Positions 3,013 to 43,833 are shown, counted from the stretch's first letter. The stretch: DNA of 64,000 nucleotides from Candidatus Saccharimonadota bacterium (GCA_031973215.1 DALYDK010000001.1:38122-102121), one strand, 5' to 3'. Made by a program: numbers and translations. The notes: generated from the letters alone by a model not told the origin.

Positions 3013-3052
3013 TTAACCTAATTATATCTTACTTGGGGTATAATTAGGTCGT

Positions 3053-4117: not shown

Positions 4118-5213
4118 TTTTATTGCAATTACCAATCAAATTTTTGATACAGCTTTTGGATTTGCCTACCTAGAGGGTGAGGTTGCAAACTTTCGAATAA
4201 GTAAAAATAAGTGGGTATATTTTGATTTAAAAGATGAGTTCAGTAAGGTTCAGTGTTTTGGAAGTGTGTATTACTTACCAGGTCCTATAGAGGAGGGGAT
4301 GAAGATAGTGGTTGGCGGAAGACCAAGTCTTCATAACCAATTTGGGTTTAGTTTTAATTTTCAATCTATTACTCCTAGCGGAGAAGGTAGTATAAAAAAA
4401 GCCTTCGATTTACTGAAAGCAAAGCTTCAAAAAGAAGGCCTTTTTGATAGTGATAGAAAAAGGGTATTGCCTTATCCTCCAATGAAAATTGCTCTAGTTA
4501 CGTCGTTGGAGTCAGCGGCTTACGCCGACTTTATTAAAGTATTAAGTAGCCGATGGCCTTTTATTACTGTCGAGGTATTCGATTCACTAGTTCAAGGAGA
4601 GCAGGCTCCAGCTCAAATTTCAGCATCAATTTTAGCTAGCAACCAACAGGCAGAACTAGCCGATATTTTAGTAGTAACAAGAGGTGGTGGTTCCGCAGAC
4701 GATTTATCGGCATTTAACGACGAACGGGTAGTGCGAGCGATTGCTTCTAGCAGAATTCCGACATTAGTTGCAATTGGGCATGAAATTGACGAGTCTTTGT
4801 CTGAACTTGCATCCGACATGCGGGCAAGTACACCAAGCAATGCCGCTGAGTTAATTGCCCCGGACAGACGCAGTGAACTCAAATTTGTTAAGTCACTAGA
4901 AGACAATATTATTAACTACTATAAGCAAAATATAGACATTGCAAAAAATTACTTGCTTACTAGCAGGTCAAGTATGTTGCATAAATTTCAAGAATTAATT
5001 TTCACTGAAAAAAATAAAATAAACTCATCTTTATTACTCTTAAACTCTTTGAATCCAAGAGAAATATTAAAAAAGGGCTATTCAGTTGTTTATAGTAACA
5101 ATCAGTTTACCGGTAGGGCTCATAATATTAAGCTTAAAGATACTTTGCTAATTAAATTTTACGATGGCGAGGTTGTTGCCGAAGTAAAGGAGGTAAAAAA
5201 TGACGAACTTTAA
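4083..5213 (+). CDS. xseA: Exodeoxyribonuclease VII large subunit
   Basis: 376 aa with a TTG start. It has an OB-fold N-terminus (EGEVANFRISKNKWVYFDLKDE..VQCF) and the VTRGGGSADDL and ASTPSNAAEL motifs. It is followed by xseB. Confidence 0.9.
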   Translation: MNDQKQIFSPTDFIAITNQIFDTAFGFAYLEGEVANFRISKNKWVYFDLKDEFSKVQCFGSVYYLPGPIEEGMKIVVGGRPSLHNQFGFSFNFQSITPSGEGSIKKAFDLLKAKLQKEGLFDSDRKRVLPYPPMKIALVTSLESAAYADFIKVLSSRWPFITVEVFDSLVQGEQAPAQISASILASNQQAELADILVVTRGGGSADDLSAFNDERVVRAIASSRIPTLVAIGHEIDESLSELASDMRASTPSNAAELIAPDRRSELKFVKSLEDNIINYYKQNIDIAKNYLLTSRSSMLHKFQELIFTEKNKINSSLLLLNSLNPREILKKGYSVVYSNNQFTGRAHNIKLKDTLLIKFYDGEVVAEVKEVKNDEL

Positions 5214-5385
5214 CTACAAACAGGCAAGGCAAGATTTAGACAAAATTTTAGAATGGTTTGAAGATCCAAACATAGATTTTGAAGAAGCCGATGCAAAATA
5301 CCAAGAAGCTAAAAAAATTATTAGCGACATAGAGAAGTACCTTAGTAAAAAAGAGGCAGAGCTAAAAGTCGAAATTAAGAAGTGA
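5200..5385 (+). CDS. xseB: Exodeoxyribonuclease VII small subunit
   Basis: 61 aa helical protein that overlaps the xseA stop. It has an AAGGAGG Shine-Dalgarno sequence upstream. Size and position are typical of XseB. Confidence 0.85.
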   Translation: MTNFNYKQARQDLDKILEWFEDPNIDFEEADAKYQEAKKIISDIEKYLSKKEAELKVEIKK

Positions 5386-5867
5386 TTATTCTTTTAATAA
5401 TTCTATTTATAATTTTATGCTTCGGCTTTGTGCTGATATTTGGCGCTCCATATTTACCAACTATGAAAACACAACAGAATCAAGCGCTTGATTTATTAGA
5501 CCTAAAGCCGGGTCAAACTTTACTAGAGCTAGGGTCAGGTGACGGTAGACTGTTAATAACTGCCGCAAAACGGGGCATCAACTGTGTAGGTTATGAGCTT
5601 AATCCTATTTTATTCATTGTTTCTAAGGCTTTGTGCTTCAAATACAGAAAATTAATTAAGATCTATTATGGAAATTTTTGGCACAAAAAATGGCCCCCAG
5701 CAGATGGTATTTTTGTATTTTTGCATCCAAGGTTTATGAAAAAGCTCGACCAATATATAACCAAACAATATCCTCACCAAAAAGTTAAATTAGTCAGCTA
5801 CGCCTTCAAAATCCCCGGCAAAAAGCCAGCCAAAACACAATCTGCAATTTTTTTGTATTATTACTAA
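5382..5867 (+). CDS. Class I SAM-dependent methyltransferase with N-terminal TM helix
   Basis: 161 aa with a GTG start overlapping the xseB stop. It carries the LLELGSGDGRLL glycine-rich SAM motif. Confidence 0.7.
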   Translation: MIILLIILFIILCFGFVLIFGAPYLPTMKTQQNQALDLLDLKPGQTLLELGSGDGRLLITAAKRGINCVGYELNPILFIVSKALCFKYRKLIKIYYGNFWHKKWPPADGIFVFLHPRFMKKLDQYITKQYPHQKVKLVSYAFKIPGKKPAKTQSAIFLYYY

Positions 5868-5943
5868 GTAATTTGCTGCTTAATTTTTAGCTTAGGTAAA
5901 TTCAAAAATCTAGCATCTAACTTCTAATTCTGTTAGCATAAGA

Positions 5944-6723
5944 ATGATGCAACCAAATCAACAAAACCCAAACAATAACCAACTTTACCCACCTAGTCCG
6001 TATGTAAATGGTCAATTCCCGGGTAACCCAATGGGCACAGGCACACTGGCTCCGCCTCCTCCGCCGGTAAATTCAAAGCCATCTGTTGGTCTTGTGGTTA
6101 CAATTGTTATTTTAACTTTGCTTTTCTTGTTATCGGCCGTTTTAGCTGGTGTATTTTTTGTGCAAATGCAGGATTATAAAAATAATTCAGACCAAAAATC
6201 AGCTGAAGCTGTAGTACTAGCCAAGGAACAGCAAAAAAAGGAACTCGAGCAAGTTTTTGCAGAGCAGGCCAAAGAGCCACTCGTAAACTACACATCACCT
6301 GCAGATCTTGGCAGTGTAGTTGTAGCTTATCCAAAAACATGGAGCGCTTATATAAATGAAAAGGGATCTACTCAGCCTTTAGACGCTTACTTTCATCCTA
6401 ACTATGTTCCCTCTAGTAGCGGAGGCTCGAATGAATCATTTAATTATGCGCTTAGGGCTCAGATTTTACAGCAAAACTACCAAACTGTAGCCGATGAATA
6501 TAAAGACGAAATTAAGGCGGGTAAGGTAACCGTTACTCCGCTAACAGGTTTGCCTGCTGGTGGTACGGGAATAAGAGTAGACGGCGAAATAGCAACGAAA
6601 AAGAACGGATCTTTAATTATTATTCCTGTAAGAGACAAGGTTCTAAAGGTTTGGACAGAAGGCGATCAATTCAAAAATGACTTTAATAATTTTGTGCTAA
6701 AGAATCTTAAATACAACCCGTAA
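5944..6723 (+). CDS. Membrane-anchored protein with Pro/Gln/Asn-rich N-terminus
   Basis: 259 aa. It has a low-complexity N-terminus, a single TM segment (VGLVVTIVILTLLFLLSAVLAGVFFV) and then a ~170-aa extracytoplasmic domain. Confidence 0.55.
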   Translation: MMQPNQQNPNNNQLYPPSPYVNGQFPGNPMGTGTLAPPPPPVNSKPSVGLVVTIVILTLLFLLSAVLAGVFFVQMQDYKNNSDQKSAEAVVLAKEQQKKELEQVFAEQAKEPLVNYTSPADLGSVVVAYPKTWSAYINEKGSTQPLDAYFHPNYVPSSSGGSNESFNYALRAQILQQNYQTVADEYKDEIKAGKVTVTPLTGLPAGGTGIRVDGEIATKKNGSLIIIPVRDKVLKVWTEGDQFKNDFNNFVLKNLKYNP

Positions 6724-6782
6724 GTTTAATGTTATAATAATACTATTAAGGGTTAATAAAAACTTGGGGTCAAGTATCTAAG

Positions 6783-7448
6783 GTGTCTAAATTTTCTAAA
6801 CAGTATAAAAACTCACTTCTCTTTGATTTTCAGGAAAAATTTATTCAAATTAAAACATTGGCCGAAGCAGGTGTCTCGGGCGATGAAATAAGTAGAATAA
6901 GTAGCGAGGCCTTGTCGACGCTTAACTATGTTTTGTTTGCTAATCATTATGCACAAACTCAGCTAGAACTAACTAGTGTTTCGGCGGCAGGGGCTGCAAA
7001 AAGTGCACTTTTCGATATAGGCAACATTACAAAAAATTTACCTGTTGATATTTGTTTCGAGACTAGCCAAACACTAGACTTAGTTTATTCAAATTCAACC
7101 GCAATAAGAGGCATTGTTTTTGGCTTAGCAACTGGCTGCCTTAACATGTTAGAGCCTGGGAAAAGAGCAAAATTAGTTGTTTCTGTTCAGCAAACCAATA
7201 TTAATACTCAACGGGTTGGAATATTTTCAAACGATATTGACCTTAGGGCTTCAGAAATAAGAAAATCAGATACTTTCAAAGAAAATCTAATGGTTGCCCC
7301 TGAGCTAAGCGCAAACTCTGGTGTTGGTTTTTATATATCTAACGAACTTTCAAAAATGATAGACTCTAAAATTCAACAATTTAACCATCGCAGTTTGCCC
7401 GGTGTTGGTTTTTACGTTCCTTTAAGTAACCAGCTTCAGTTAGTATAA
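6783..7448 (+). CDS. Hypothetical protein with degenerate histidine-kinase-like ATPase C-terminus
   Basis: 221 aa with a GTG start. C-terminal SGVGFYISNELSKMI...PGVGFYVPL resembles the G2 box and lid of HATPase_c. I recognised no H-box. Confidence 0.45.
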   Translation: MSKFSKQYKNSLLFDFQEKFIQIKTLAEAGVSGDEISRISSEALSTLNYVLFANHYAQTQLELTSVSAAGAAKSALFDIGNITKNLPVDICFETSQTLDLVYSNSTAIRGIVFGLATGCLNMLEPGKRAKLVVSVQQTNINTQRVGIFSNDIDLRASEIRKSDTFKENLMVAPELSANSGVGFYISNELSKMIDSKIQQFNHRSLPGVGFYVPLSNQLQLV

Positions 7449-7452
7449 ATAT

Positions 7453-7845
7453 ATGCGCTGTCTAATAGTTGAACCAGATAAGGTTTTGGCTCCTGTTTAT
7501 TACAATCAATTTAAGCAGGCGGGCCTAGAGGTAAATATTGCTGTAGATGCTTCAGATGCGGTTGCAAAAATAGATGATAACGTTCCAGATATTATTATTT
7601 TAGAGCCAAAGCTAGCAAAGCATAGCGGTATAGAATTAATTCATGAAGTTCGATCTTACGAAGATTGGAACTCAGTTAAAATTGTCGTTTACAGCTCTGT
7701 GCCTCAATATGCTTTTGGGGCTAGCGAGGCAGTTTGGCAAAAATATGGAGTCCTCAGGTATTTAGAAAAGTCGAAAACTTCTGTAAGCCAGTTAATAGGA
7801 ATTGTCAAAACATTATTGGAGCAAAATGAAAATAATAGTAGATAA
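7453..7845 (+). CDS. Receiver-like (pseudo-receiver) domain protein
   Basis: 130 aa with a CheY-like pattern. The acidic pocket reads LIVEPD, and the phospho-acceptor position reads DIIILEPKL, so Glu replaces Asp. The conserved SS and K (YLEKS) positions are retained. Confidence 0.65.
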   Translation: MRCLIVEPDKVLAPVYYNQFKQAGLEVNIAVDASDAVAKIDDNVPDIIILEPKLAKHSGIELIHEVRSYEDWNSVKIVVYSSVPQYAFGASEAVWQKYGVLRYLEKSKTSVSQLIGIVKTLLEQNENNSR

Positions 7846-8518
7846 GGCAATTGTCTTAAGAAGAGTAAATTATGGCGAGGCCGACCGTATTGTTTCTGTC
7901 TTAACATCTAGCAGCGGCAGGGTTTCGGTACTTGCCAAAGGAGTACGAAAGCCAAAAAGTAAGCTAGCCGCAGGCATAGAGCCTTTTTGCATTAACGAAA
8001 TATGCTTTGCTCCAGGTAGGGGCGAAATTGCAACCCTCACTAGCTCAAGGATCTTAAAGAATCATACGCAATTTATTAATAGTTTAAAAAAGCTAGAGCT
8101 TGCCAATAAAATTCTAAAAAATCTTGACACTCACCTTGAAGAGAATAGTTCAGAAAACTATTTTAATCTTCTTGAAGCTGCAATAGAACAAATAAATATG
8201 GTAGATTCTGCGGATTTAATTGAGTTATGGTGGTTAGTCAATTTACTCAAAATTTCTGGAAACGATATAAATACAATTAGCCAGACAGATGGCCAACCTT
8301 TCAGCGAAAATATACTTTACAATCTAAATATAGATAAAGGGGGATTTATCGCTTCGGAAAGCGGATTAATTGAAGCAGGTGCAGTTAAAATTATCAAGCT
8401 TGCCAAAAACAACCCACCAAGCAAATTAATTCTACTAAAAAATTATCAGTCTTTTTGCGATTCTGTTTTGCCTCATATTAGAAGCTTCTATCGTTTTCAT
8501 ACAAGCGGCAACTACTAA
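7826..8518 (+). CDS. recO: DNA repair protein RecO
   Basis: IVDKAIVLRRVNYGEADRIVSVLTSSSGRVSVLAKGVRKPKSKL is the typical RecO OB-fold N-terminus. I chose the ATG at 7826, which has a GGAG 5 nt upstream, over the TTG at 7802. Confidence 0.85.
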   Translation: MKIIVDKAIVLRRVNYGEADRIVSVLTSSSGRVSVLAKGVRKPKSKLAAGIEPFCINEICFAPGRGEIATLTSSRILKNHTQFINSLKKLELANKILKNLDTHLEENSSENYFNLLEAAIEQINMVDSADLIELWWLVNLLKISGNDINTISQTDGQPFSENILYNLNIDKGGFIASESGLIEAGAVKIIKLAKNNPPSKLILLKNYQSFCDSVLPHIRSFYRFHTSGNY

Positions 8519-20835: not shown

Positions 20836-20887
20836 ATAGCTCTAAAATAGACAAAATGCTTAAAATATGCTATTATATATAATTATA

Positions 20888-21715
20888 ATGGAAAAAGATA
20901 AAAAACTAACTGAGCCTACTGACGATACAACTAGCAACATAATTCAAAATCTTCTGGCCGATCCCGAGGCCGTTGCTAATAGGTTAAATCAGTTGCTAGA
21001 GGGTTCATCGGAATCACGTGTTTTAGCCGGTGATAAAATTTCATATACAGAATTTATTAAGCCAACCATTGGTGTTATTTCAGAATCTCAACTTTTATCT
21101 AAGCCGTATTATTTAGATGATTTTTCTGTTTATCAGGAAATTCCAGAGATTCTTGCGGAAATTTCAAGCAAGGTCGAGTCTTTGAATATTCCTGCTGAGA
21201 CCACAAGGATTTTTAATATTGTATTTCATACAGTACAGCAGGCGCAGTTTATGTATTTTAATCATTCACTGGGTGGCTCCGAAGCCGCCGAAAAACGAGC
21301 TAGTTTGCTTGCCGATATTATTGAATTTGACGCAGAAAATGATGATGTGAGCGACGAGGATAAACCAGTTTCAATTCAAGACCTAAAAGAAGCTGCCTTA
21401 TGTATGGAAAGAGCTGTAGTTTGTCACAATTTATTTAAATTTTTCGGGATAGACTCTACCCTTAAAACAGGCAGATTAGAATCAGATGACGGCTTTGAAT
21501 ATCATGCATGGGTTGAATTCTACAGAGAAGATGGACAGCGTTATCTGTATGACCCAACAAATCCTCATATAATAATTAGCGAAAGCGGCTCAGTTATTAA
21601 CATAAAGCCTATGCTTATTAAAATTGATAGTCAGGGGGGTCCTGTTACGACCTCATGGAAAACCCTAAGAGAAGATGGTACTGTTATCAGAGAAAAACAA
21701 CTCCAGTACTTTTAA
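20888..21715 (+). CDS. Transglutaminase-like cysteine protease-fold protein
   Basis: It has a Cys-His-Asp core pattern: AALCMERAVVCHNLFKFFGI...EYHAWVEFY...RYLYDPTN. The start is uncertain (ATG at 20867 or 20888). Confidence 0.65.
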   Translation: MEKDKKLTEPTDDTTSNIIQNLLADPEAVANRLNQLLEGSSESRVLAGDKISYTEFIKPTIGVISESQLLSKPYYLDDFSVYQEIPEILAEISSKVESLNIPAETTRIFNIVFHTVQQAQFMYFNHSLGGSEAAEKRASLLADIIEFDAENDDVSDEDKPVSIQDLKEAALCMERAVVCHNLFKFFGIDSTLKTGRLESDDGFEYHAWVEFYREDGQRYLYDPTNPHIIISESGSVINIKPMLIKIDSQGGPVTTSWKTLREDGTVIREKQLQYF

Positions 21716-33464: not shown

Positions 33465-33609
33465 ATTTTTTAAAATGGGGGGAGGAGCGGGGGAGTTTGT
33501 ACAGTTATTAATTATTTAATAATTATTAATGTTTAAAACATAGGCGTGCGCTTAAATGTCGTAAAAAAATATATTTTTTAACAAAACTGTGGAAAAATCA
33601 AATATTTAG

Positions 33610-33652
33610 TGTTCGCTATTTGTTCACCACTTCTAGTTCGTATTTTGTTCGC
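33610..33652 (+). repeat. Two pairs of 7-bp direct repeats with 4-bp A/T spacers (TGTTCGC-tatt-TGTTCAC; AGTTCGT-attt-TGTTCGC)
   Basis: Read directly from the sequence: 33610-33627 and 33635-33652. The periodicity within each pair is 11 bp. Confidence 0.5.
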
Positions 33653-34158
33653 AAAAAATGATAAAAAAATATTATTTTGTGGTTCTGATAGACTTGTTCC
33701 TACTTAGTTATTAAATATTTAATTAATTCTAAAATAGCGACAATACTACTCCGCTATAGTCTTGCGTTTATATTTAATATTATTAATTTATGTATAATTA
33801 CTCTTCTACTAGAACTACATATACAAATTTTCAGGGATTATAACCGTCAGAAGAGGATCATGTGCTTATTTATGTTATTTACCCCTGATAATAGGTGTAT
33901 AACTTATCATCTTTTACATACTAGTTAAAGTCGTAAAAGATATATTGTGCGACATTGACTCACTATTTCCGGGGCACACCCTATTTGCTTTTTCTATTAA
34001 TATTTAATCGCCTTTTGCGGTTCAAGCTTTTATAATTTGCAGATTTTATATGTTTATAAATATATATATTTACCTTTTTGATTCATTTTTATTTTTCATA
34101 CTAATAGTATTAATTATATTTCGGTAAACTAGTTTTGCGATATTATGATCGATTACAA

Positions 34159-34176
34159 TGTTCGCAAAATGTTCGT
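34159..34176 (+). repeat. Third pair of the same direct repeat (TGTTCGC-aaaa-TGTTCGT)
   Basis: Read directly from the sequence. It lies 22 nt beyond the 3' end of the minus-strand gene 34198..35250. Confidence 0.5.
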
Positions 34177-34197
34177 TTGTCTGTCATTTATTTAAAA

Positions 34198-35250
34198 TTA
34201 TGAAAGGGCTTTTTTAAATTTTATTATTTTGCCTTCTAGCAGTTGTTTTTGGAAAATACTTAGTGAATGATTTTCTAGTAGATCTTCTAATATGTTTATG
34301 GCTGTGTGTGATAATGTTCTATCTAAGTTTATTCCAATTTGGTTGTATTGCTCGGCTTTCCACACTGTAGGCGATATTGTGTTTGTTTGATTTATTCCTT
34401 CGGCAATAGAATCTATTACATTAATAGACATGGTCTTTAGGCCTAAGCTTCCTAATTTTCTAATTAGCAGCTCAGCTGTAATAGGGCGGTTGCGAATATC
34501 AATTTCAGGATAGTTTTTGGCTAGTATCTTTGACATGTAATACCCGGTACTTAAATTATTGTTTTCCGTAGCTACTCTCAGGTTATCAAAGCTATATAGA
34601 GCCCTTGTTCCTTGTGGAAGGTTGAACGTTCTAACAACTAGGCAAGGGTTTTTATTAGACCTTATATCTTCCCTGTCGCTACTGCCAAACTTGTTCGCAT
34701 TTTTAGAAAATCTAATCCAACTATTTTCTCTAATGAAGCTATTCATATTATGGATATAAAACAAGCTTCTCGCATGATTTAGCATATTTATACTAAATAT
34801 ATCTTGACTTAAGCATTCTTTGTGGCAAATATTTTCAGGCAAAAGCTCGCCTGTTATTTGGGGCAGTAGTGAATCTACCACATAAAATTTGTCGTTATTA
34901 CTTGCAATAACGAATGAATGAGTGTTGGCAAATGCTATTTTATGATCAATTCCCGCGGTGCCAAGAATTTGACTAGTAGCAATAGAATATCCGTAGCAAT
35001 CAACTTGTTTGGAATGATTAATTGTTTCTTTATCTAGCGCAGATGCACCAATTGTTCTTTTTTTGAATGAATATTTGTTTTTTACTGTGCGGCTTGTGAG
35101 CGCTAAGGCTTCTTCTATCCCCCGCTCATCTTTTGTTTCAATTATTTTGTAAATTTCGGCATCTGAAAAATCGGCCAAAAAATCATATACCTCTGGCTGA
35201 TAATTTTCTGGGTTATATTTTTCTACAAAAGGGTGTCTAGGCTTTGGCAT
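34198..35250 (-). CDS. Transglutaminase-like cysteine protease-fold protein
   Basis: 350 aa. VDCYGYSIATSQILGTAGIDHKIAFANTHSFVIASNNDKFYVVDS fits a Cys...His...Asp transglutaminase-core pattern. Confidence 0.55.
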   Translation of the reverse strand: MPKPRHPFVEKYNPENYQPEVYDFLADFSDAEIYKIIETKDERGIEEALALTSRTVKNKYSFKKRTIGASALDKETINHSKQVDCYGYSIATSQILGTAGIDHKIAFANTHSFVIASNNDKFYVVDSLLPQITGELLPENICHKECLSQDIFSINMLNHARSLFYIHNMNSFIRENSWIRFSKNANKFGSSDREDIRSNKNPCLVVRTFNLPQGTRALYSFDNLRVATENNNLSTGYYMSKILAKNYPEIDIRNRPITAELLIRKLGSLGLKTMSINVIDSIAEGINQTNTISPTVWKAEQYNQIGINLDRTLSHTAINILEDLLENHSLSIFQKQLLEGKIIKFKKALS

Positions 35251-35290
35251 TGTTAATATTTTTTAGCTTTTAGTGACTTAATTTCTTTCT

Positions 35291-36148
35291 CTAGTATGTG
35301 AAGTATGCGGTTATTATTTTTTGTTGATCTGGGCTATAAAAAGATGTAGGCCTCCCAGACCTGATATCATTGATATTATTTTTATATATTTTAACGGGAC
35401 CGAGAAGGTCTGGGGGTATTTGGTCAATTATTCTATTCAAAGTATTCATATCAGTTTTCAGCTTACGGATAAGTTCTGATTTTCGAATATAGCCATCGGG
35501 AATTTCAGTAAATGTTTCTATTTCTTTTTCAATCTGGATCTGATCTTTTGGGGAGTAAAAAGGTGCTTTGTGATTCTGAATATTGCGGTATATTGGTTCT
35601 ATCAAGCCTTTATTTTTTAATCGCTTAGCAGCGGCGTAAGCCATTGCGGGAGTTACTTCTAGCAGCTTGGCTATGCCGTTTGCGGTCATATAGCCCTCAG
35701 GTATCCAAATTTCTGATTTGATGACTGTTTCAACCAGTTTTTGTTGATCTGGAGAGAGTAATTCAATAGACTCTGTGCTCAATTGTGAGTTATTTGTTTC
35801 TTCACCATAATCTTCTGATAGTTTAATAGCATATTTAATTAATGATTTACTGACTTCTAGGGATTCTGATAATTCATCTAGGCTTAAATATCCTTCTGGC
35901 CTATTTTCTGTGCCGATGTTTTCGGTGTCGTTATGCAGTTCTGTTGCTTCATCTAATTGGGTAGATAAAATGGACAACCTTCCTATGATAGAGCTGAGTT
36001 CAGCTTTTGTTGCTTCATCGAGGTTTTCTGAGTCGTTACTTAGTTGAATGAGCATATCAAGAACGACCGAACTTAGCATTTTGTTATTGGCTCTTTCTTG
36101 TGACTTAGCAGTCTCGTACTGCTGCTTGCCTTCAGGTAACTCTTCCAT
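35291..36148 (-). CDS. Protein with three tandem HTH-like repeats
   Basis: 285 aa. There are three modules beginning P-[ED]-G-Y (EGYLSLDELSESLEVS..., EGYMTANGIAKLLEVT..., DGYIRKSELIRKLKTD...). The last two end in FYSP-x-DQ. Confidence 0.5.
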   Translation of the reverse strand: MEELPEGKQQYETAKSQERANNKMLSSVVLDMLIQLSNDSENLDEATKAELSSIIGRLSILSTQLDEATELHNDTENIGTENRPEGYLSLDELSESLEVSKSLIKYAIKLSEDYGEETNNSQLSTESIELLSPDQQKLVETVIKSEIWIPEGYMTANGIAKLLEVTPAMAYAAAKRLKNKGLIEPIYRNIQNHKAPFYSPKDQIQIEKEIETFTEIPDGYIRKSELIRKLKTDMNTLNRIIDQIPPDLLGPVKIYKNNINDIRSGRPTSFYSPDQQKIITAYFTY

Positions 36149-36190
36149 AAAAAATAATTCTACAATATATATAATTTTTACGCAAGTTAA

Positions 36191-38869
36191 TTAACGGAGG
36201 TGGAGGACGGTTGGGTCATCGTCTTTGTTTTTATGGTTATTGGGTGTCTCTGCCGCTCCGCGTGTTACCCCACTCAAGTCAACCAAGCCTTTATGACTAA
36301 TGGTGCTCTGTGGTTTTTCTGGCTTATTGACAGGAGCGCTATTTACTGGCTTTTTTATTAGCTCTTGCCTATTATTATGACTTTTTGGGACATTTTGAGG
36401 GCCGCCTGGAGCCTTTTCTGCGACTTGGGCGGCTTCTTTGGCTCTTTTGCGCCTTAGGCGCCTTTTTTGGCTTTCTGTGAGTTTTTGGACCGGAGCGGTA
36501 ATTATTGAACTGAGTGGTATTTTACCTGGGACGTTTGAAGAAGTGGGATTATTGTTTTGGCTGATCTGTTGCTGATTTGTATTCGTGGGTAGGGTTTTAT
36601 TGATTATTTCAGTTTCTACTTCAAGTTTTGATCTTGAGTATAAAGACCTAGAATGTTCAATTATTTGGGTTGAAAAATCTTTGGTTACAGATGGAATATT
36701 TAATGAAGTACCCGAAAAAGGAGCTGCCTTTTCTCCGTTAATGCTCATGCTTGTAACAAAATGTCTGTTATGAAAAGAAGATAGGTCTCCTGCTTCAAAT
36801 TGCGGCTCGTAGTATTTAACCAAAAATGGGCTATCATCTGGACTTACTCTGAAGGTAATCATTGTTCCAACATTACCAAAAACAGCGTCACGCACCGGTT
36901 CTTCCATTTGGGAAATGTACTGATTAGCAACCGTTAAGTTAAGTCCATATTTTCTGGCCTCGCTAAGAATGACGGCAAAGCTGTCGGTGGCAAAGTTCTG
37001 AAATTCGTCTACGTATAAATAAAATGGTCTTCTATCTTCAATTCTGGGAATGTCTGCACGGCTCATGGCGGCAAGCTGAATTTTAGTCACTAACATTGAT
37101 CCCAAAATGGCAGCATTATCTTCACCGACTAATCCCCTTGAAAGATTAACAATGAAAATTTTGCCTTCATCCATCATTTTTCTAATATTAAAGGAGCTTT
37201 TTTGCTGGCCAATTATATTTCTGACCAAAGGGTTGGCCACAAAAGCACCGACTTTATTTAGTACAGGTGCTACTGCTTCGTTTGCAAATTTCTCATTCCA
37301 AGATGCAAATTCTTTAAGCCAAAAACTTTTAACAACAACATCATCAACATGGCTAATCACTTCATCTCGGAATTTTTTTTCTGTAAGCATTCTGGTAATG
37401 TCTAGCATGGTCGAGCCGGGGTAGTCTAGTAGTGCAAGAATGGTGTATCTAAGAATATATTCTAGCCTTGGTCCCCAAGAGTCAAACATTCTTTTGAGTA
37501 CACCCACAAGCTCGCTACTTACTTGACCTTTGCTGACGGAGTCGTTTATCTCTAGCGGGTTGAACCCTATTGGGAAGGCGCTGTCTGCCGGGTTAAAGTA
37601 GACAACATCTTTGATTCTTCTTTCTGGAATATAGCGAATGACATTAGAGGCGTAATCGCCGTGAGGATCAATTACGGCAAAACCTTGATTATAAAAAATG
37701 TCTGAAAGAGTAAGTAGCTCTAATAGCCCAGACTTACCTGTGCCAGTTTGCCCTAATACATAAACATGCCTGCCTCTGTCGGCTCTAAGCAGTCCAAACA
37801 TTGCGTTGCTGCCTCTAAAATTAGTACTTCCGAATAAACTTATCTCGTTTTCAGGTACTTTTCCGTATGCAGGAATATTGGCTGGTGGTTCGGCAGTTTT
37901 GGTGGTAGCCCAGACAATATTGGGAGTTTCAACAGTGGTATGTGGCAAATGAAAAAGGCTGGCTAATTCTTCTATATTTAGGATAAAACCTTTGTCGGTG
38001 AAAAGCCTATCTTGGTAATCGTTTAATTTGTTTGGATCAAAACTTGGCAATTTACTTTGAAAACCGTTTAGGTTGGTTGTGTTAAATTGCTTGAATGTGC
38101 CGACCATTGCTTGCATCCTAAGCTTAGCCGTATTTTCGTCGTTACCAGCATATACTAGTCGTATTTTAACCTGGTAGCCAAGTTTTTTACTCTTATCTTC
38201 TATGGCTGTTATTCTGGTTTTGTCTCGCTCGGATGGTTCGTAGGCATTTGCTTGACCTGCCTCGGGTGGCTTAATTAAAGCTCCAAAAGCTTGCCCTACA
38301 TAAGATAGCCCCCCTCCCCCGCTCCAAACTGCTTTACCAGATTTAATTCGAGCTATCATTTTGCTGCTTTTTTGGTGCCACTCATCGCCAATAGGTCGAC
38401 ATAAAATTTGGACCCACATTTCTTCATCTAGCTGATCTAGCTTTGCCAAGGTTGCTGTAATCGCCGCCAGCGGATCAACTTCAAAACTGGGGAACGTTTT
38501 AATCGGTAGGGTTTCGTTGTCTGTTAATACTAGCTCTGTGCTGTAAATTACTCTCTGGGGCATTGCGCGGTTAGCATAGTCTGACGTTTCTGATATTTGG
38601 GCCTGGGGGTATTGGGCATATATTTGGCCCTCAACAAAAGCCTGTAGGTCTTTGGGAACCCAAGCGTAAAATCTTATTCGTTGTCCAATAGATGCAAATT
38701 CAAAACCAACATGCTGTTGCTTTAAATATCCGTCACTAAAAAGTGACTTGAGTGGTTTGTATATACCATGAAGCGCAGCAAACATCTGTTCTGCTGACAG
38801 TTCTTTTTTATCATTTGTCCTTGGAATCTCAACTAATAGAAGAGAATTATCTGTTGGTTTACTGTCCAC
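36191..38869 (-). CDS. T4SS coupling protein-like (TraD/VirD4/DUF87-type) P-loop ATPase with basic low-complexity tail
   Basis: 892 aa. Walker A is VYVLGQTGTGKSGL and Walker B is PFYLYVDEFQNFAT. It has a ~340-aa N-terminal domain with no TM helices. The C-terminus is Lys/Arg/Pro-rich. Confidence 0.7.
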   Translation of the reverse strand: MDSKPTDNSLLLVEIPRTNDKKELSAEQMFAALHGIYKPLKSLFSDGYLKQQHVGFEFASIGQRIRFYAWVPKDLQAFVEGQIYAQYPQAQISETSDYANRAMPQRVIYSTELVLTDNETLPIKTFPSFEVDPLAAITATLAKLDQLDEEMWVQILCRPIGDEWHQKSSKMIARIKSGKAVWSGGGGLSYVGQAFGALIKPPEAGQANAYEPSERDKTRITAIEDKSKKLGYQVKIRLVYAGNDENTAKLRMQAMVGTFKQFNTTNLNGFQSKLPSFDPNKLNDYQDRLFTDKGFILNIEELASLFHLPHTTVETPNIVWATTKTAEPPANIPAYGKVPENEISLFGSTNFRGSNAMFGLLRADRGRHVYVLGQTGTGKSGLLELLTLSDIFYNQGFAVIDPHGDYASNVIRYIPERRIKDVVYFNPADSAFPIGFNPLEINDSVSKGQVSSELVGVLKRMFDSWGPRLEYILRYTILALLDYPGSTMLDITRMLTEKKFRDEVISHVDDVVVKSFWLKEFASWNEKFANEAVAPVLNKVGAFVANPLVRNIIGQQKSSFNIRKMMDEGKIFIVNLSRGLVGEDNAAILGSMLVTKIQLAAMSRADIPRIEDRRPFYLYVDEFQNFATDSFAVILSEARKYGLNLTVANQYISQMEEPVRDAVFGNVGTMITFRVSPDDSPFLVKYYEPQFEAGDLSSFHNRHFVTSMSINGEKAAPFSGTSLNIPSVTKDFSTQIIEHSRSLYSRSKLEVETEIINKTLPTNTNQQQISQNNNPTSSNVPGKIPLSSIITAPVQKLTESQKRRLRRKRAKEAAQVAEKAPGGPQNVPKSHNNRQELIKKPVNSAPVNKPEKPQSTISHKGLVDLSGVTRGAAETPNNHKNKDDDPTVLHLR

Positions 38870-38943
38870 TGCTATATTATAACTCTTTTTATTTTAATGA
38901 TTGATAATAGCTGAACTAATATAGAAAGGCTTATTTTATAGGA

Positions 38944-39999
38944 TTAGGCTTCAGCTAGGGTGTATGTTGCCTTGGCAACTCGCTTGAATTGATCTTTCCC
39001 CTGTAGGTTAAGAAGGATTGTCGTTTCTTTGACATGTCGAGTTTTGAGGACTCTTTTTACAATTTCGTCTCTGTGAAGGGGTTCGCCGGCCTTTTTGAGA
39101 ACATCGCTAATAATATCGGCCACAGTTCCCTTTTTATAGCCCCATTCGTCTAGTGCATAAATACCACGGCCAATAAGTACGAACCTTTTATCTTTAATAA
39201 GTTCATTATGAATAGCCTGAGTAGTTACGTCTTTGCGCTTAAAATCACTTTCTCTAATTGCTGCTGCAATTTCGTTGAAATGCATGTGTGATCCCTTTTC
39301 GCTCAAAATAACATATATTTTATCCCTGATATTCTTAGGGTTTACTGTAGGCCATTTGATATAACCCCATTTACCATTAAGGTGAGCTAGGTCTTTAGAA
39401 ATAGATGCTACGGCCTCGATGTGGGTTGTATCATCGCTACCAAATAATTCGGCTACTTCGCTGATATCACATGGTTTTCCAATTTTTTTGCGGATAATCT
39501 CGACTATTTTACTGGCTTGCTCGCGTATAGTTTTTTCATCATAAAGCTCTCTATCAGCTGTAGAGGCAAAGTAGTGGTCAGATTCTTCAATGTTTGCAAG
39601 CTTTGGAGCCAGTTCTGCTATAAAGCTTAGTCTGGCTTGATCAATTTTTGTGCCGTCTTGCGTAAGTAGATCGGCCAGCTGACTAATTCTCATGACTGAG
39701 CCATTAGTTTTGATAATTTCTAAAATGTTGTCCTGGGCCTCTTCAAGAGACTGGAGCTTGCCTTCTTTAGCGGAATTCTTAAGCTTTGTAACAATTGCTT
39801 TTTCTAGTTGTCTAACTCTCTCTCTTGTTATGCCAAGGAGTTCGCCAATTTGCTCTAGGGTTTCTTTTCGGTCAAATAGGCCGAATCTTCTTGATACAAC
39901 TTCTTTTTCTCTTTCTCTATCAATGGAATTAAGTATAGAATTTATAGTCTCTTCAAGATTAATCGTTGAAAAACCGGAGCTTGTTTTTGGCTTTGTCAT
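38944..39999 (-). CDS. Sigma-70 region-4-like HTH fused to two HARE-HTH-like (RNAP delta-like) domains
   Basis: 351 aa. N-terminal VVSRRFGLFDRKETLEQIGELLGITRERVRQLEKAIVTKLK matches RpoD region 4.2. Later, HFNEIAAAI...RFVLIGRGIYALDEWGY and a second similar module follow. Confidence 0.65.
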   Translation of the reverse strand: MTKPKTSSGFSTINLEETINSILNSIDREREKEVVSRRFGLFDRKETLEQIGELLGITRERVRQLEKAIVTKLKNSAKEGKLQSLEEAQDNILEIIKTNGSVMRISQLADLLTQDGTKIDQARLSFIAELAPKLANIEESDHYFASTADRELYDEKTIREQASKIVEIIRKKIGKPCDISEVAELFGSDDTTHIEAVASISKDLAHLNGKWGYIKWPTVNPKNIRDKIYVILSEKGSHMHFNEIAAAIRESDFKRKDVTTQAIHNELIKDKRFVLIGRGIYALDEWGYKKGTVADIISDVLKKAGEPLHRDEIVKRVLKTRHVKETTILLNLQGKDQFKRVAKATYTLAEA

Positions 40000-40242
40000 A
40001 CTAGTCAGTCTCTCCTAATTTATAGGTTATATTATTTTTAGTTAACAATATTATAAAATTATTAAACACATTAGTCAATATTAGCGACTAATTTCTTTAC
40101 GAACAGCTGACTATTTGGCTATTTATACGATATTGTTGAATAAATTTACAAATAGTCTTGCAATAAGCCTATTGTAGCACAAACTAGACAAAATATCATA
40201 TAGCAATTATTAGTATTAACAATTTCACCTATTTATTATGAT

Positions 40243-42543
40243 TTACTTTTTAGTTGATTTTCTTTTGGCTATTCGTTTTTTGGCTGGCTTAGCTTTTGCG
40301 AGTAACTCATTTGCCTCTAGTAGACTGATTTTTTCTGGTTCAATAGCTTTTGGTATGCGAGCATTTACTTTGCCGTTTGTAACGTAAGGTCCGAAAGGTC
40401 CTCTTAAAACCTGAATTTTTTCTTCGGCAAATTCTTTAATTTGACGATTGGCCTCTAGCTTAAGCTTTTCTTCATAAAGCTCGTTGGCTTTTTCTTCATC
40501 TACTTCAAATGGCCCAAGTGGCTTTGTAGATACAAAAGTCCTATCTACCTGAATGTACGGACCAAATCTACCAATATTGGCTTTAATTTCTTTACCGTCT
40601 TTAGTATGTCCTACCAGTCTAGGCAGCTTGAACATTTCAAGGGCTTCTTCTAGGGTGATTGATTCTAGACGGGTGTTGCTGGGGAATGGTGCAAACTGAG
40701 GCTTCTCTTCTGAGTCTGTGGAACCTTTTTGAAGCATTAGGCCATACTTACCATAGCGAGCAAATATTGGCTTACCGCTTGCTGGATCATTTCCTAGTTC
40801 CCGAGCCTGGGAACTTTCTGATCTGCTTACAGTCTCGGCATTCTCAACTAGGGGGTGAAATTTTGTATAAAAATCATCTATTGCTTTTTGCCATTTAATT
40901 TTCCCCTCGGCTACTTCGTCGAATTCTTCCTCTGCCTGGGCTGTAAAGCTTGAATCGACTATTTCGGCAAAATATTTTGCCAAGAAATCTGTTGCAACAT
41001 CCGCAAGGTGGGTGGGAATTAATTTAGACTTATCTGCTCCGTAAATTTCGGTTGTTTTCTTTTTCTCTATTGAGCCGTTTGTTAGTTTTAGCTCCAATAC
41101 ATCTTTTTCTTCACCTTCGATATCGACCTTTTCTATATATCCTCTTGTCTGGATTGTACTGATTGTTGGGGCGTATGTGCTTGGCCTGCCTATCCCTAGT
41201 TCTTCTAGTGTGCGTACTAGACTAGCTTCTGTATAACGAGATGGGTGCCTGGTGTATGATTCTGTGGAGGTAATTTCTTGTCTCTGAAGGCTTTGGCCTT
41301 GCTCTAGCTTGGGAAGAAGCTGATCTTCTTTGGTTCCGCCGTATACTTTCATGAAACCATCAAATAGTAACACCTCACCTTTGCCAACAAATTTTTCTGG
41401 CCTGGTGCTTATGGAAATATAGGCTTCGGTTTTCTCTGTTCGAGCTGGCGCCATCTGGGAGGCTACCATTCTTTTCCATATTAATTTGTATAGTTTTTGT
41501 TGCTGTGCGTCTGCTCCGGCTTCTAAGTTTGAGATATTCGTCGGCCTGATGGCTTCGTGTGCTTCTTGAGCCGATGCGTTCTTGGTTTTGTAGGTGCGAA
41601 CCTTTAGATAATTTTTACCAAATTCGGACTCTATATAAGAACTGGTGGCTGCAATTGCAATATTGCTAACAAATAAGCTGTCGGTACGCATATAAGTTAT
41701 GTGTCCGTTTTCATAGAGCTTTTGTGCGACACTCATTGTTTGCTTAACACTAAAGCCGAGCTTTCTTGACGCCTCTTGCTGTAAGGTGCTTGTTGTAAAG
41801 GGAGCTCCTGGGTTTCTTTCGCTGGGCTTTTTTAAGATTCCGTCAATAACATAAGATGCATCTATATTGTCTTCTAGGAATTTATTGGCTTTATCTTCGG
41901 AGTCAAATTTTTCATTAAGCTCCGCACTTAGTTCGTGTCCATCGGCCTGAAAGTTTCCAACAGTTTTATATGTCGATTGACTTTCAAAATTGGAAATTTC
42001 TCTCTCTTTGTCGACTATTAGCTTGACTGCCACCGATTGTACCCGGCCTGCGCTAAGACCTGGCTGGACCTTTTTCCATAATATAGGAGAAAGTTCGTAG
42101 CCTACTAATCTATCAAGAACACGCCTTGCCTGCTGGGCGTCAACTAAGTTTATATCTATGGTCCGGGGGTTCTCTATTGCTTTTGTAATAGCCGGCTTAG
42201 TTATTTCATGAAAAACAATTCTTTTGGTTTTGGCGGTATCTAACTTTAGAGCTTCGGCTAAATGCCATGCAATAGCCTCCCCTTCTCGGTCTTCATCGCT
42301 TGCTAGCCAGACTTGGTCAGATTGTTCTGCTAATTTTCTAAGTTCTGTGACAACCTTTTTTTTGTCTGCTGGAATTTCATACTTCGGTTGATAATTCTTT
42401 TCAACATTAATATTAAGGCCTTTTTTTGGTAAATCTCGGATATGTCCAAAGCTACTTTTTACTAGAAAATCTTTACCAAGAAACTTTTCTATAGTCTTGG
42501 CTTTGGCCGGACTTTCGACAATTACTAGATTTTTTTTCGCCAT
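40243..42543 (-). CDS. topA: DNA topoisomerase I
   Basis: 766 aa. The Toprim domain starts LVIVESPAKAKTIEKFLG. It also has DEDREGEAI and the active-site region YMRTDS. Confidence 0.95.
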   Translation of the reverse strand: MAKKNLVIVESPAKAKTIEKFLGKDFLVKSSFGHIRDLPKKGLNINVEKNYQPKYEIPADKKKVVTELRKLAEQSDQVWLASDEDREGEAIAWHLAEALKLDTAKTKRIVFHEITKPAITKAIENPRTIDINLVDAQQARRVLDRLVGYELSPILWKKVQPGLSAGRVQSVAVKLIVDKEREISNFESQSTYKTVGNFQADGHELSAELNEKFDSEDKANKFLEDNIDASYVIDGILKKPSERNPGAPFTTSTLQQEASRKLGFSVKQTMSVAQKLYENGHITYMRTDSLFVSNIAIAATSSYIESEFGKNYLKVRTYKTKNASAQEAHEAIRPTNISNLEAGADAQQQKLYKLIWKRMVASQMAPARTEKTEAYISISTRPEKFVGKGEVLLFDGFMKVYGGTKEDQLLPKLEQGQSLQRQEITSTESYTRHPSRYTEASLVRTLEELGIGRPSTYAPTISTIQTRGYIEKVDIEGEEKDVLELKLTNGSIEKKKTTEIYGADKSKLIPTHLADVATDFLAKYFAEIVDSSFTAQAEEEFDEVAEGKIKWQKAIDDFYTKFHPLVENAETVSRSESSQARELGNDPASGKPIFARYGKYGLMLQKGSTDSEEKPQFAPFPSNTRLESITLEEALEMFKLPRLVGHTKDGKEIKANIGRFGPYIQVDRTFVSTKPLGPFEVDEEKANELYEEKLKLEANRQIKEFAEEKIQVLRGPFGPYVTNGKVNARIPKAIEPEKISLLEANELLAKAKPAKKRIAKRKSTKK

Positions 42544-42621: not shown

Positions 42622-43485
42622 CTAGATTAATTCCCAGGTATTATTTCCAACATTTCTAACAACACCCATTATTTCTAAATATGACAAAGTGCTATTTAGG
42701 TTGCTTGATGTCATTTTTGTCGTTTCGAGTAAACTTTCGAAATTAGCTTGGCCTTTAATTAGCACTTTTGCTATGTTCATTTGTTCTTCGTTCTCAAGAA
42801 GTGGTAGCTTTTTCTGAATATGCCGATTTTCCAAACCTAGCAAATTTAATATTTCTGCAGAATCATTAAGTAAATTAGCACCTGTTTTAATAAGATTATT
42901 GGTTCCTTCTGAGTCGGGGCTAAATATTGGTCCTGGTGCTGCAAATATATCTATGCCAAGATCTATACCAAACTGCGCAGTGTGCAGACTGCCACTTCCT
43001 TTGGCGGCTTCCGGTATGACAATAATGTCCGATAAGCCTGCGATAATGCGGTTTCTGGCAATAAAATTGCGTTTATAAGCTATTTTTTCATCTGGTTGGT
43101 ATTCGCTGATTAGGGCACCATCTTTAGCTATTTGGTTGGCTAAATTCAGGTGAGATCTGGGATATATGTTATTAACACCACAAGGTAGAATGGCAATTGT
43201 TAAGCCGTTTGATTTAAGGGCCTGTTGGTGAGCTACGGAGTCTATCCCAAGGGCAAGTCCACTCACGATGACAACGCCCTTTGCGACAAGGTCAGATACG
43301 ACTTTTTCTGTAACAGCTTTGCCGTAAGATGTTAATTTTCGGCTGCCAACAATTGCAACGCTAGGTAGTTTAAATAAGTCTATTGGATTGTCTAGTTCAG
43401 TTTTTATATAAAGATGATCAGGACTGTCGCTTAAGTGGACCAGCTTTTTGGGTATTTGTTTGGGTTTAAGCTTAAAAGTTTTCAT
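42622..43485 (-). CDS. dprA: DNA processing protein DprA
   Basis: It contains VAIVGSRKLTSYGK...VSGLALGIDSVAHQ...GSGSLHTA. I chose the ATG at 43485 (MKTFKL), because the longer track ORF would run through a plus-strand promoter. Confidence 0.9.
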   Translation of the reverse strand: MKTFKLKPKQIPKKLVHLSDSPDHLYIKTELDNPIDLFKLPSVAIVGSRKLTSYGKAVTEKVVSDLVAKGVVIVSGLALGIDSVAHQQALKSNGLTIAILPCGVNNIYPRSHLNLANQIAKDGALISEYQPDEKIAYKRNFIARNRIIAGLSDIIVIPEAAKGSGSLHTAQFGIDLGIDIFAAPGPIFSPDSEGTNNLIKTGANLLNDSAEILNLLGLENRHIQKKLPLLENEEQMNIAKVLIKGQANFESLLETTKMTSSNLNSTLSYLEIMGVVRNVGNNTWELI

Positions 43486-43501
43486 ATATTTAATAATACT
43501 A

Positions 43502-43530
43502 TTGACAATATTTACATTAAATGCTATTAT
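43502..43530 (+). promoter_or_regulatory. Near-consensus sigma70 promoter TTGACA-N17-TATTAT
   Basis: Hexamers at 43502-43507 and 43525-43530 with exactly 17 nt between them. There is no plus-strand ORF downstream. Confidence 0.55.
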
Positions 43531-43536
43531 TGTGTG

Positions 43537-43833
43537 CGTAAGTATGGCATTAGTCGTACTTAATGCACCTTTTACCCCCAAATTCTAACACTATGTTAGT
43601 AGAGTTAGATAGTTTTAGAGCAAGCAGCTAGATTCGTTGTTACCCTCCACGATTTATTTGCGCGCATTTTCTTTAGGGATTATGCAAAGTTCTAAAACTA
43701 ACTAATGCCTTTAACCTAAGCTCAACCCCTCGAGATATGTGAGGTGGAAATCACGAAGCGTGGGATATCTCCCAGGGTTGAAGGCGAAATAGAGCCTACA
43801 GCGGTGCCCACCCCCTCTGTAGGCTCTTTTTTT
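43537..43833 (+). ncRNA. Candidate ~300-nt structured RNA of unknown class
   Basis: It is bounded by the promoter above and by the terminator AGAGCCTACAG-15 nt-CTGTAGGCTCT plus T7 (43791-43833). Internal stems include GTGCGTAAGTA...TACTTAATGCAC and CAACCC..GAGATAT...ATATCTC..GGGTTG (43723-43780). No ORF is present. Confidence 0.45.

Follow-up and report, generated by a model that had tools for sequence, protein, structure and literature searches.

The 64,000-nucleotide stretch of DNA analysed here (Candidatus Saccharimonadota bacterium, GCA_031973215.1, DALYDK010000001.1:38122-102121; henceforth the window, meaning the whole of that stretch) is a chromosome segment of Saccharibacteria and carries four co-oriented minus-strand genes, numbered 1 to 4 from their upstream end, of which gene 2 (36191..38869) is the main subject of this report. 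It encodes an 892-residue ATPase in which an N-terminal DUF8128 domain is followed by a core resembling that of type IV coupling proteins (T4CPs), and it is one of the orphan "T4CP homologues" already reported across Patescibacteria, its orthologue in Ca. Southlakia epibionticum (S. epibionticum) ML1 being SEML1_0293. Judging from profile searches and predicted structures, the protein is a VirB4-like architecture with a VirD4/TrwB-like core, and it may act as a type IV secretion system (T4SS) family motor. The unit that is conserved around it is the pair that it forms with gene 1 and not the set of four genes.

The P-loop ATPase core, with a predicted helical insertion, occupies residues ~360-760 of the gene 2 product (36590..37792, minus strand) and is assigned to the TrwB/VirD4 type on the strength of Pfam, PDB and the structure model. 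Its Walker A motif GQTGTGKSG lies at 37727-37753 and its Walker B motif YLYVDEFQNF at 36992-37021. Three coupling-protein families of Pfam were matched above their cut-offs, namely TrwB_AAD_bind (36.3 bits against 20.5), T4SS-DNA_transf (25.9 against 20.1) and TraG-D_C (24.8 against 22), which bears out the TraD/VirD4-type assignment that an earlier inspection of the stretch, here called the sequence-only reading, had made from the Walker motifs. DUF87, a domain common to the whole superfamily, was also matched above its Pfam cut-off with 34.5 bits. When the sequence was searched against the PDB, TrwB was the sole clear match (E 1.6e-5) and IcmO/DotL was marginal (E 0.0064). The other P-loop families compared scored poorly: the VirB4 profile TIGR00929 reached 12.5 bits (E 0.031) where the cut-off is 643, and CagE_TrbE_VirB gave no match; the HerA equivalog reached 15 bits (E 0.0065) where 970 are required; and FtsK_SpoIIIE was not matched in Pfam. 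In the test of the helical insertion the profile match covered positions 16-314 of 387, and in the predicted model eight helices (residues 444-568) stand between the core strands.

The family is large and under evident constraint. More than 7,900 homologue hits were obtained, highly conserved, and the catalytic residues were invariant in the 20 to 30 homologues compared. Across species, the median identity to the window protein was 65% for the ATPase, as compared with 61% for mraY, 56% for topA and 42% for dprA.

The N-terminal domain (residues 1-340; 37850..38869, minus strand), which the sequence-only reading had left unassigned, found no match in the local Pfam copy and is precomputed as PF26449, DUF8128, a family of 2210 clusters at 50% identity. 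The structure prediction suggested for this domain at that time was run, and the AlphaFold2 model of it (predicted local distance difference test, pLDDT, 72; predicted template modelling score, pTM, 0.71) points to a VirB4 N-terminal-like fold: in Foldseek comparison with the PDB the top 13 matches were all TrwK/VirB4, TrwK being that of plasmid R388, with E values from 7e-6 to 4e-4, template modelling (TM) scores of 0.40-0.45 and probability 1.0. The full-length model (pLDDT 64) likewise retrieved TrwK/VirB4 in the first place, over 800-930 aligned columns, followed by DotL, TrwB and Cag-beta and then by HerA. A HerA-type defence ATPase was considered as an identity for gene 2 and rejected, the N-domain being no HAS-barrel and the HerA matches ranking under those of VirB4 and the T4CPs.

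Many DUF8128 proteins were observed to stand alone, with ~415-430 residues and an N-terminal membrane helix (P0198, P0208 and P0219 are examples), and these stop exactly where the ATPase core would be expected to start. In viral contigs a stand-alone DUF8128 protein found no relative, and most of what the family alignment retrieved there was homologous to just the ATPase domain. A literature search on DUF8128 returned no paper.

The absence of a membrane anchor, to which the sequence-only reading had drawn attention, holds for the window protein and fails as a trait of the family. No hydrophobic 19-residue segment is found in the gene 2 product, whose maximal Kyte-Doolittle hydropathy is 1.18, and its open reading frame (ORF) cannot be longer because a stop codon lies upstream. 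Hydropathy along maximal ORFs, used to call membrane helices, revealed an N-terminal hydrophobic helix in 60 of the 65 distant homologues from Patescibacteria and in 44 of 80 saccharibacterial ones. The helix sits in an N-terminal extension of ~35-47 residues that is missing from the closest relatives of the window protein. The membrane helix is ancestral and has been lost locally in the clade of the window.

At its other end the protein runs out into a long tail rich in Lys, Arg and Pro (residues 765-892; 36194..36577, minus strand), described earlier from composition and here predicted to be disordered (pLDDT <50). It holds the polybasic run QKRRLRRKRAK at residues 801-811, and 69 species loci encode a run of this polybasic kind. 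The extreme C-terminus, …PTVLHLR (36194-36214), belongs to a recurrent peptide of the form [ILVM]x[LIVMF][RKH]-COOH, typically …IRLR, which is carried by 61 of 76 Saccharibacteria species; its fuller typical form is [E/D]x[T/V][I/L][R/K/H][L/I]R-COOH, and the rest of the tail is not conserved. The terminal peptide is probably a docking motif for a partner.

The gene neighbourhood was compared in 80 species-representative loci of Saccharibacteria from GTDB, 76 of which hold both gene 1 and gene 2. Gene 1 lies directly upstream of gene 2 on the same strand in 76/76 of these, at a median gap of 74 nt, and the genes are arranged as der-pth-dprA-topA-[sigma4/HARE]-[ATPase], after which comes the convergent cell-wall (dcw) cluster pbp-mraY-ftsW-murG-ftsQ; such synteny inside one class is partly shared descent. 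Insertions of more than 600 nt split topA from gene 1 in 28 of 68 loci. The four-gene operon that had been proposed as one system did not survive this comparison, for gene 3 was present in 0/80 and gene 4 in 1/80 of the loci, and the full order was seen in three close relatives only. The conserved unit is thus the gene 1-gene 2 pair.

Outside the class the pairing dissolves. Among 80 metagenomic loci of distant Patescibacteria (L089-L168) the sigma4/HARE gene was never adjacent to the ATPase gene, and in 2 loci it lay ~6 kb off. One locus (L133, 1122-10478) has the co-directional order sigma4/HARE-HIT-dnaE-aspS-ATPase, which hints at an older and looser proximity of the two genes. On the 5' side of the ATPase gene, 31 of the 80 distant loci carry a small protein of 132 residues (coiled-coil-like) or of 167 residues, and on the 3' side a ~200-residue protein is frequent and dnaX occurs in 14 loci. 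Further recurrent neighbours are a XerC-like recombinase, GtrA, cysS and tgt, with dnaE in L133 and L124; examples of the distant neighbours are found at 1500-1898 in L141, 1480-1983 in L107 and 4340-5914 in L091. Tandem paralogues of the ATPase gene were seen in six distant loci.

Gene 1 (38944..39999, minus strand) encodes 351 residues in which a sigma-70 region 4 is followed by winged-helix/HARE-HTH modules, where HTH stands for helix-turn-helix, as assigned by Pfam and PDB and as the sequence-only reading had proposed. The module of regions 4.1 and 4.2 covers residues 13-85 (39745..39963), where Pfam places Sigma70_r4 over residues 29-74 (E 1.5e-12) and where PDB sigma factors are matched in their region 4 only (best E 1.5e-10); this segment aligns with region 4 of group 1 and group 2 sigma factors. 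Two HARE-HTH stretches were recognised by Pfam, the stronger at residues 228-286 (39142..39318; E 1.1e-8, 35.7 bits against a cut-off of 25.9). Sigma regions 2 and 3 were not matched in Pfam, NCBIfam or PDB and full-length sigma models all scored far under their cut-offs, which rules out its being a sigma factor. Against the delta-type domain of RNA polymerase (RNAP) delta, RpoE, the HARE-HTH modules give a match with E 3.7e-9 (TIGR04567), although the 36.6 bits fall under the cut-off of 42 and the acidic C-terminal tail of delta is missing. The domain content suggests DNA binding and perhaps RNAP binding by the gene 1 product. No report of a sigma4/HARE fusion was found when the literature was searched for HARE-HTH with sigma.

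Published genetics of S. epibionticum ML1 bear directly on the pair. Both genes, SEML1_0293 and SEML1_0294, were flagged there as "core" and "Patescibacteria-enriched" (PMC10633639, Wang et al. 2023). SEML1_0294, the orthologue of gene 1 with Sigma70_r4 and HARE-HTH, was scored ES/ES/ES, that is essential, by transposon sequencing (Tn-seq), with 24 insertions in the input DNA and only 1-2 recovered once selection had acted (PMC10633639). SEML1_0293 was non-essential at all three time points, its normalised reads falling about four-fold over outgrowth (5817 to 2940 to 1372), and of the upstream genes topA was essential and dprA was not (PMC10633639). Given that the ATPase is dispensable, gene 1, an essential core gene of Saccharibacteria, must have its own function beyond it. 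The operon proposal is qualified by these differing phenotypes and by the lack of adjacency in other Patescibacteria. As a side observation, SEML1_0294 was annotated "RpoS" (PMC10633639), so that an uncharacterised, Patescibacteria-enriched essential factor bears this label despite having no sigma region 2 or 3. The S. epibionticum pair has the same order and domains as that of the window, with topA and dprA upstream. SEML1_0293 has 921 residues against 892 and its ATPase domain starts ~35 residues later; as far as lengths and domain positions go, these figures would fit an N-terminal extension of the kind that is missing in the window clade.

A full-length homologue of gene 2 occurs in a T4SS-like setting in Bacillus phage G (L088, JN638751.1), whose gp156 is 26% identical over residues 5-757; gene 2 also matches phrog_5156 with E 1.7e-75. 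The gp156 gene adjoins gp155, which is VirB4-like, and lies two genes downstream of TrbL/VirB6-like gp153; this was the only T4SS-like context seen for the gene 2 family among the contexts examined, those in phage 0305phi8-36 and a Microcystis phage being uninformative. We note in passing that gp153, gp155 and gp156 make up a T4SS-like trio within ~5.6 kb (2890-8454) of a jumbo phage genome.

The essential T4SS cluster of S. epibionticum has no recognisable coupling and relaxase proteins (PMC10633639). Our preferred reading, which we hold at somewhat less than an even chance, is that gene 2 encodes a T4SS-family docking or translocation motor that works with a T4SS encoded elsewhere. It would be a P-loop motor of hexameric type from the VirB4/VirD4 lineage, that is of the T4SS ATPases, joining a VirB4-like N-terminal docking domain to a TrwB/VirD4-like nucleotide-binding core, and its flexible basic tail, ending in the conserved peptide, would probably dock a partner. 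In most Patescibacteria a single N-terminal helix would tether the ATPase at the membrane's cytoplasmic face; as this helix is lost in the clade of the window, recruitment there must use the N-domain or the tail. The protein could then be the coupling or docking ATPase that is missing from the Patescibacterial T4SS cluster, feeding to the T4SS a conditionally needed substrate, either DNA or protein, and such conditional need would account for a gene that is dispensable in laboratory co-culture and strongly conserved nonetheless. Gene 1 would supply an essential DNA-binding and possibly RNAP-binding protein, which in Saccharibacteria may also be the DNA-side partner of the ATPase, while genes 3 and 4 would probably be co-transcribed by read-through and stand outside the conserved machinery. 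In favour of the motor reading speak the homology and an N-domain that resembles VirB4, together with the membrane tether of the ancestral protein, the setting in phage G, the absence of a coupling protein from the T4SS cluster and the strong purifying selection; the partnership with a T4SS, the nature of the substrate and the role of the tail motif are inferred.

Several observations weigh against a T4SS motor. Gene 2 scores far under the TraD/VirD4 equivalog cut-offs of NCBIfam (the best, TIGR03743, gives 42.9 bits against 366), confidence in the structure models is moderate, with TM-scores of ~0.4, and the window protein is devoid of the hydrophobic segment reported above. T4SS genes are essential in S. 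epibionticum and SEML1_0293 is not (PMC10633639). Patescibacteria hold 5,713 VirD4-type (T4CP) homologues in 2,918 genomes, of which only 148 lie near virB4; exaptation was raised by the authors as a possibility, and relaxases are rare among them, with 109 homologues in 103 genomes (PMC12102498, Quinonero-Coronel et al. 2025). In the distant loci the neighbours of the ATPase gene are housekeeping and DNA-metabolism genes, neither T4SS genes nor sigma4/HARE. Lastly, a mirror-tree comparison of gene 1 with gene 2, in which shared phylogeny was regressed out and the sample was small (19 loci), yielded a partial r of only 0.17, 15th of 28 gene pairs and not above background.

The lack of virB4 linkage, the dispensability, the rarity of relaxases and the DNA-metabolism neighbours feed a different explanation, possible and in our judgement doubtful, whereby the ATPase has been exapted as a T4SS-independent DNA motor acting on chromosomal or incoming DNA, with the sigma4/HARE protein as its DNA-side partner. 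Such a motor might be the cytoplasmic puller behind ComEC in natural transformation, or might serve DNA handling linked to replication, recombination or topology. It would agree with the basic tail of the protein and with the DNA-metabolism genes that neighbour it in every lineage examined (topA and dprA here; dnaX, XerC-like and dnaE elsewhere), as well as with the near absence of the gene from the vicinity of virB4, for which exaptation has been suggested (PMC12102498). In S. epibionticum, moreover, the ATPase gene is non-essential, as are comEC, comF and dprA, and the supplementary tables list ComEC and no ComFA or ComEA, the ComF-family protein listed being a zinc ribbon with a phosphoribosyltransferase-like domain (PMC10633639). 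The neighbourhoods are, however, generally of a housekeeping kind, tRNA synthetases and tgt included, and insertions often part topA from the gene 1-2 pair. Adjacency of dprA and topA is common in bacteria and thus carries little weight; because the two are also neighbours in Bacillus subtilis, the linkage that had been taken to fit DNA uptake and processing is weak evidence. The VirB4-like N-domain and the ancestral helix point instead to a partner in a membrane translocon, as does the company of VirB4- and VirB6-like genes kept by the phage G homologue. As to a substitute for FtsK, this candidate was rejected, since S. epibionticum has a canonical, essential FtsK.

Two further explanations build on the neighbours of the ATPase gene. 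The union of sigma region 4 and delta-type HARE-HTH in one essential protein, the tight operon-like pairing throughout the class and the presence of topA upstream would suit a transcription-linked remodeller, in which the sigma4/HARE protein on RNAP (through the flap tip and a delta-like contact) recruits the ATPase to DNA or RNAP, for instance in clearing stalled complexes or in managing supercoiling with TopA. We regard this as quite unlikely: the phenotypes are discordant, gene 1 being essential and gene 2 dispensable, the genes are unpaired in other Patescibacteria though both exist there, and the binding of gene 1 product to RNAP is deduced from domain homology only. A Foldseek match to the mycobacterial RNAP-HelD-SigA-RbpA chain (E 1.6e-3) speaks weakly for it, with TM-scores of 0.13-0.16 and a rank far below VirB4 and the T4CPs. 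Very unlikely, in turn, is a four-gene DNA-sensing or anti-phage module in which HTH proteins would be the sensors, a HerA/T4CP-like protein the motor and a transglutaminase-fold protein the effector, even though the four genes are co-oriented with no coding-strand terminator predicted in their spacers, and the slot after the ATPase gene holds defence-type genes elsewhere (Cas9/Cas1 in S. epibionticum; HATPase_c_3 in L169). PADLOC gave domain-level matches, of the ATPase to mad8 (2.4e-15) and HerA models, of gene 3 to mad1 (4.6e-5) and of gene 1 to MzaA/PglW C-termini, but no complete known system and no match for gene 4, and the literature on MADS held nothing informative for such a module. 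Genes 1 and 2 are universal, position-fixed and highly conserved, one of them essential, which is unlike defence genes and renders the defence role entertained by the sequence-only reading unlikely; nearly all relatives keep this pair and miss genes 3 and 4, and gene 4 is found without gene 3 and also parted from the ATPase gene by three genes.

A bolder reading, which we consider rather unlikely, would make the DUF8128 ATPase a deep-branching VirB4/VirD4 intermediate that drives relaxase-independent DNA translocation in Saccharibacteria, with the essential sigma4/HARE protein as a DNA adaptor that replaces the relaxosome and docks on …IRLR. The motor would hand DNA to the essential T4SS or ComEC, or take it from them, where the cell touches its host.

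Genes 3 and 4 are lineage-specific cargo, as judged from their patchy, rare and variably arranged occurrence in a hypervariable slot. Gene 3 (35291..36148, minus strand; 285 residues) is a lineage-restricted accessory gene whose product holds three ~66-residue repeats, each bounded by P[ED]GY and YSPxxQ. The three repeats foreseen for this protein are therefore real, while their HTH character rests on weak matches, all under Pfam cut-offs. A homologue 39% identical stands at the equivalent position in L173, and the family comprises 4 clusters among 5.8 billion proteins. Gene 4 (34198..35250, minus strand; 350 residues), restricted to the lineage and accessory in like manner, encodes a putative transglutaminase-like protein with its core at 34852-35034. 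The Cys-His-Asp set predicted earlier was located as C85, H111 and D126, invariant in 11 homologues along with an ICHxxC motif; the match to DUF553 (transglutaminase-like) is weak for the window protein (E 0.002, 17.9 bits, under the cut-off of 20.5) and is obtained for 6 of the 11 homologues (best 4.7e-5), whereas the profile search of PDB gave no match. Its family has 14 clusters among 5.8 billion proteins and, like gene 3, is always found in the slot after the ATPase gene. The order ATPase-gene 3-gene 4 is confined to L173, L206 and L207, ATPase-gene 4 with gene 3 missing was seen in L171 and L007, and in L169 three other genes stand between the ATPase gene and gene 4. A second and unrelated transglutaminase-like gene was observed ~13 kb away in the window, at 20867-21715 (precomputed Transglut_core3, weak).

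The slot itself, between the ATPase gene and the convergent dcw cluster, ranged from 0.5 to 7.9 kb (L001-L083 and L169 compared), and of the 46 protein clusters that 57 loci yielded there, 35 had a single member; it contains a HATPase_c_3 protein in L169, and its equivalent in the window is 33465-36148. Where the window has genes 3 and 4, S. epibionticum has a GNAT gene and CRISPR-Cas with Cas9/Cas1 (PMC10633639). The slot ends in the window with an AT-rich spacer of 733 nt and 27% GC (33465..34197) between gene 4 and a convergent ftsQ-like gene.

Saccharibacteria are ultra-small parasitic bacteria, and the best homologues were all from Candidatus Saccharibacteria/Saccharimonadales; the GC content of the window is 38%. 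The layout of the four genes (38944-39999, 36191-38869, 35291-36148 and 34198-35250), with gaps of 74, 42 and 40 nt and with topA (40243-42543) and then dprA (42622-43581) upstream, the latter two labelled from Pfam, was confirmed as first described. Upstream of gene 1 lies a candidate promoter, TTGACT-17-TATAAT (40050..40078, minus strand), with 11/12 consensus matches; this site is a consensus match only, and promoter-like sites are as numerous in the region as shuffled sequence leads one to expect. The spacers from gene 1 to gene 4 have no predicted terminator on their coding strand, and co-transcription of the four genes from the candidate promoter is plausible on these sequence features. 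Families of T4SS, relaxase and integrase proteins were absent from the precomputed annotations covering most of the window, and phmmer searches of the window with the phage VirB4/VirB6-like proteins gave no T4SS relatives, in keeping with the view that the locus is no ordinary conjugation module. A prophage or an integrative and conjugative element as the source of the four genes was rejected on the same absence of integrase, relaxase and T4SS genes, and the GC content and third-position GC (GC3) of genes 3 and 4 are inside the range of the neighbouring core genes.

Both the gene family and the pair in S. epibionticum had been catalogued before. Not found in the literature searched were the VirB4-like fold of DUF8128, the ancestral helix with its loss in one clade, the conserved C-terminal peptide, the class-wide lock to the essential sigma4/HARE gene and the accessory genes 3 and 4; other literature on Saccharibacteria and VirD4 concerned unrelated mobile elements. 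The context is an essential and unusual T4SS with the coupling protein missing from its cluster and a T4CP-like gene scattered through thousands of Patescibacteria genomes, and the question of the orphan coupling-type ATPase becomes directly testable in the genetically tractable S. epibionticum ML1.

In comparison with known systems, gene 2 shares with the T4CPs (TrwB of R388, VirD4, TraD, DotL and Cag-beta) the P-loop core with Walker A and B motifs and, as the predicted model suggests, perhaps the helical insertion, and it is 17-20% identical to TrwB in Foldseek alignments. The tail of TraD binds TraM, and the flexible tail of gene 2 with its conserved end peptide recalls it. Unlike the T4CPs, however, gene 2 has its core preceded by a ~340-residue VirB4-like domain, its family carries at most one N-terminal helix and the window clade none, and it is a chromosomal core gene with no relaxase or T4SS gene nearby, not a part of a mobile element; the phage G homologue differs from the window gene in standing beside T4SS-like genes. 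With VirB4 (TrwK of R388) it shares the succession of an N-terminal domain and a C-terminal ATPase, and the fold predicted for its N-domain matches VirB4 only. In VirB3-VirB4 fusions a membrane helix stands ahead of a VirB4-type architecture, and the ancestral N-terminal helix of the gene 2 family, ahead of N-domain and ATPase, resembles this arrangement. A separate VirB4 is nevertheless encoded in the T4SS cluster of Saccharibacteria (SEML1_0008), and gene 2 lies outside that cluster. The architecture of gene 2, VirB4-like in front and VirD4/TrwB-like in its core, bears on the divergence of the two T4SS ATPase families.

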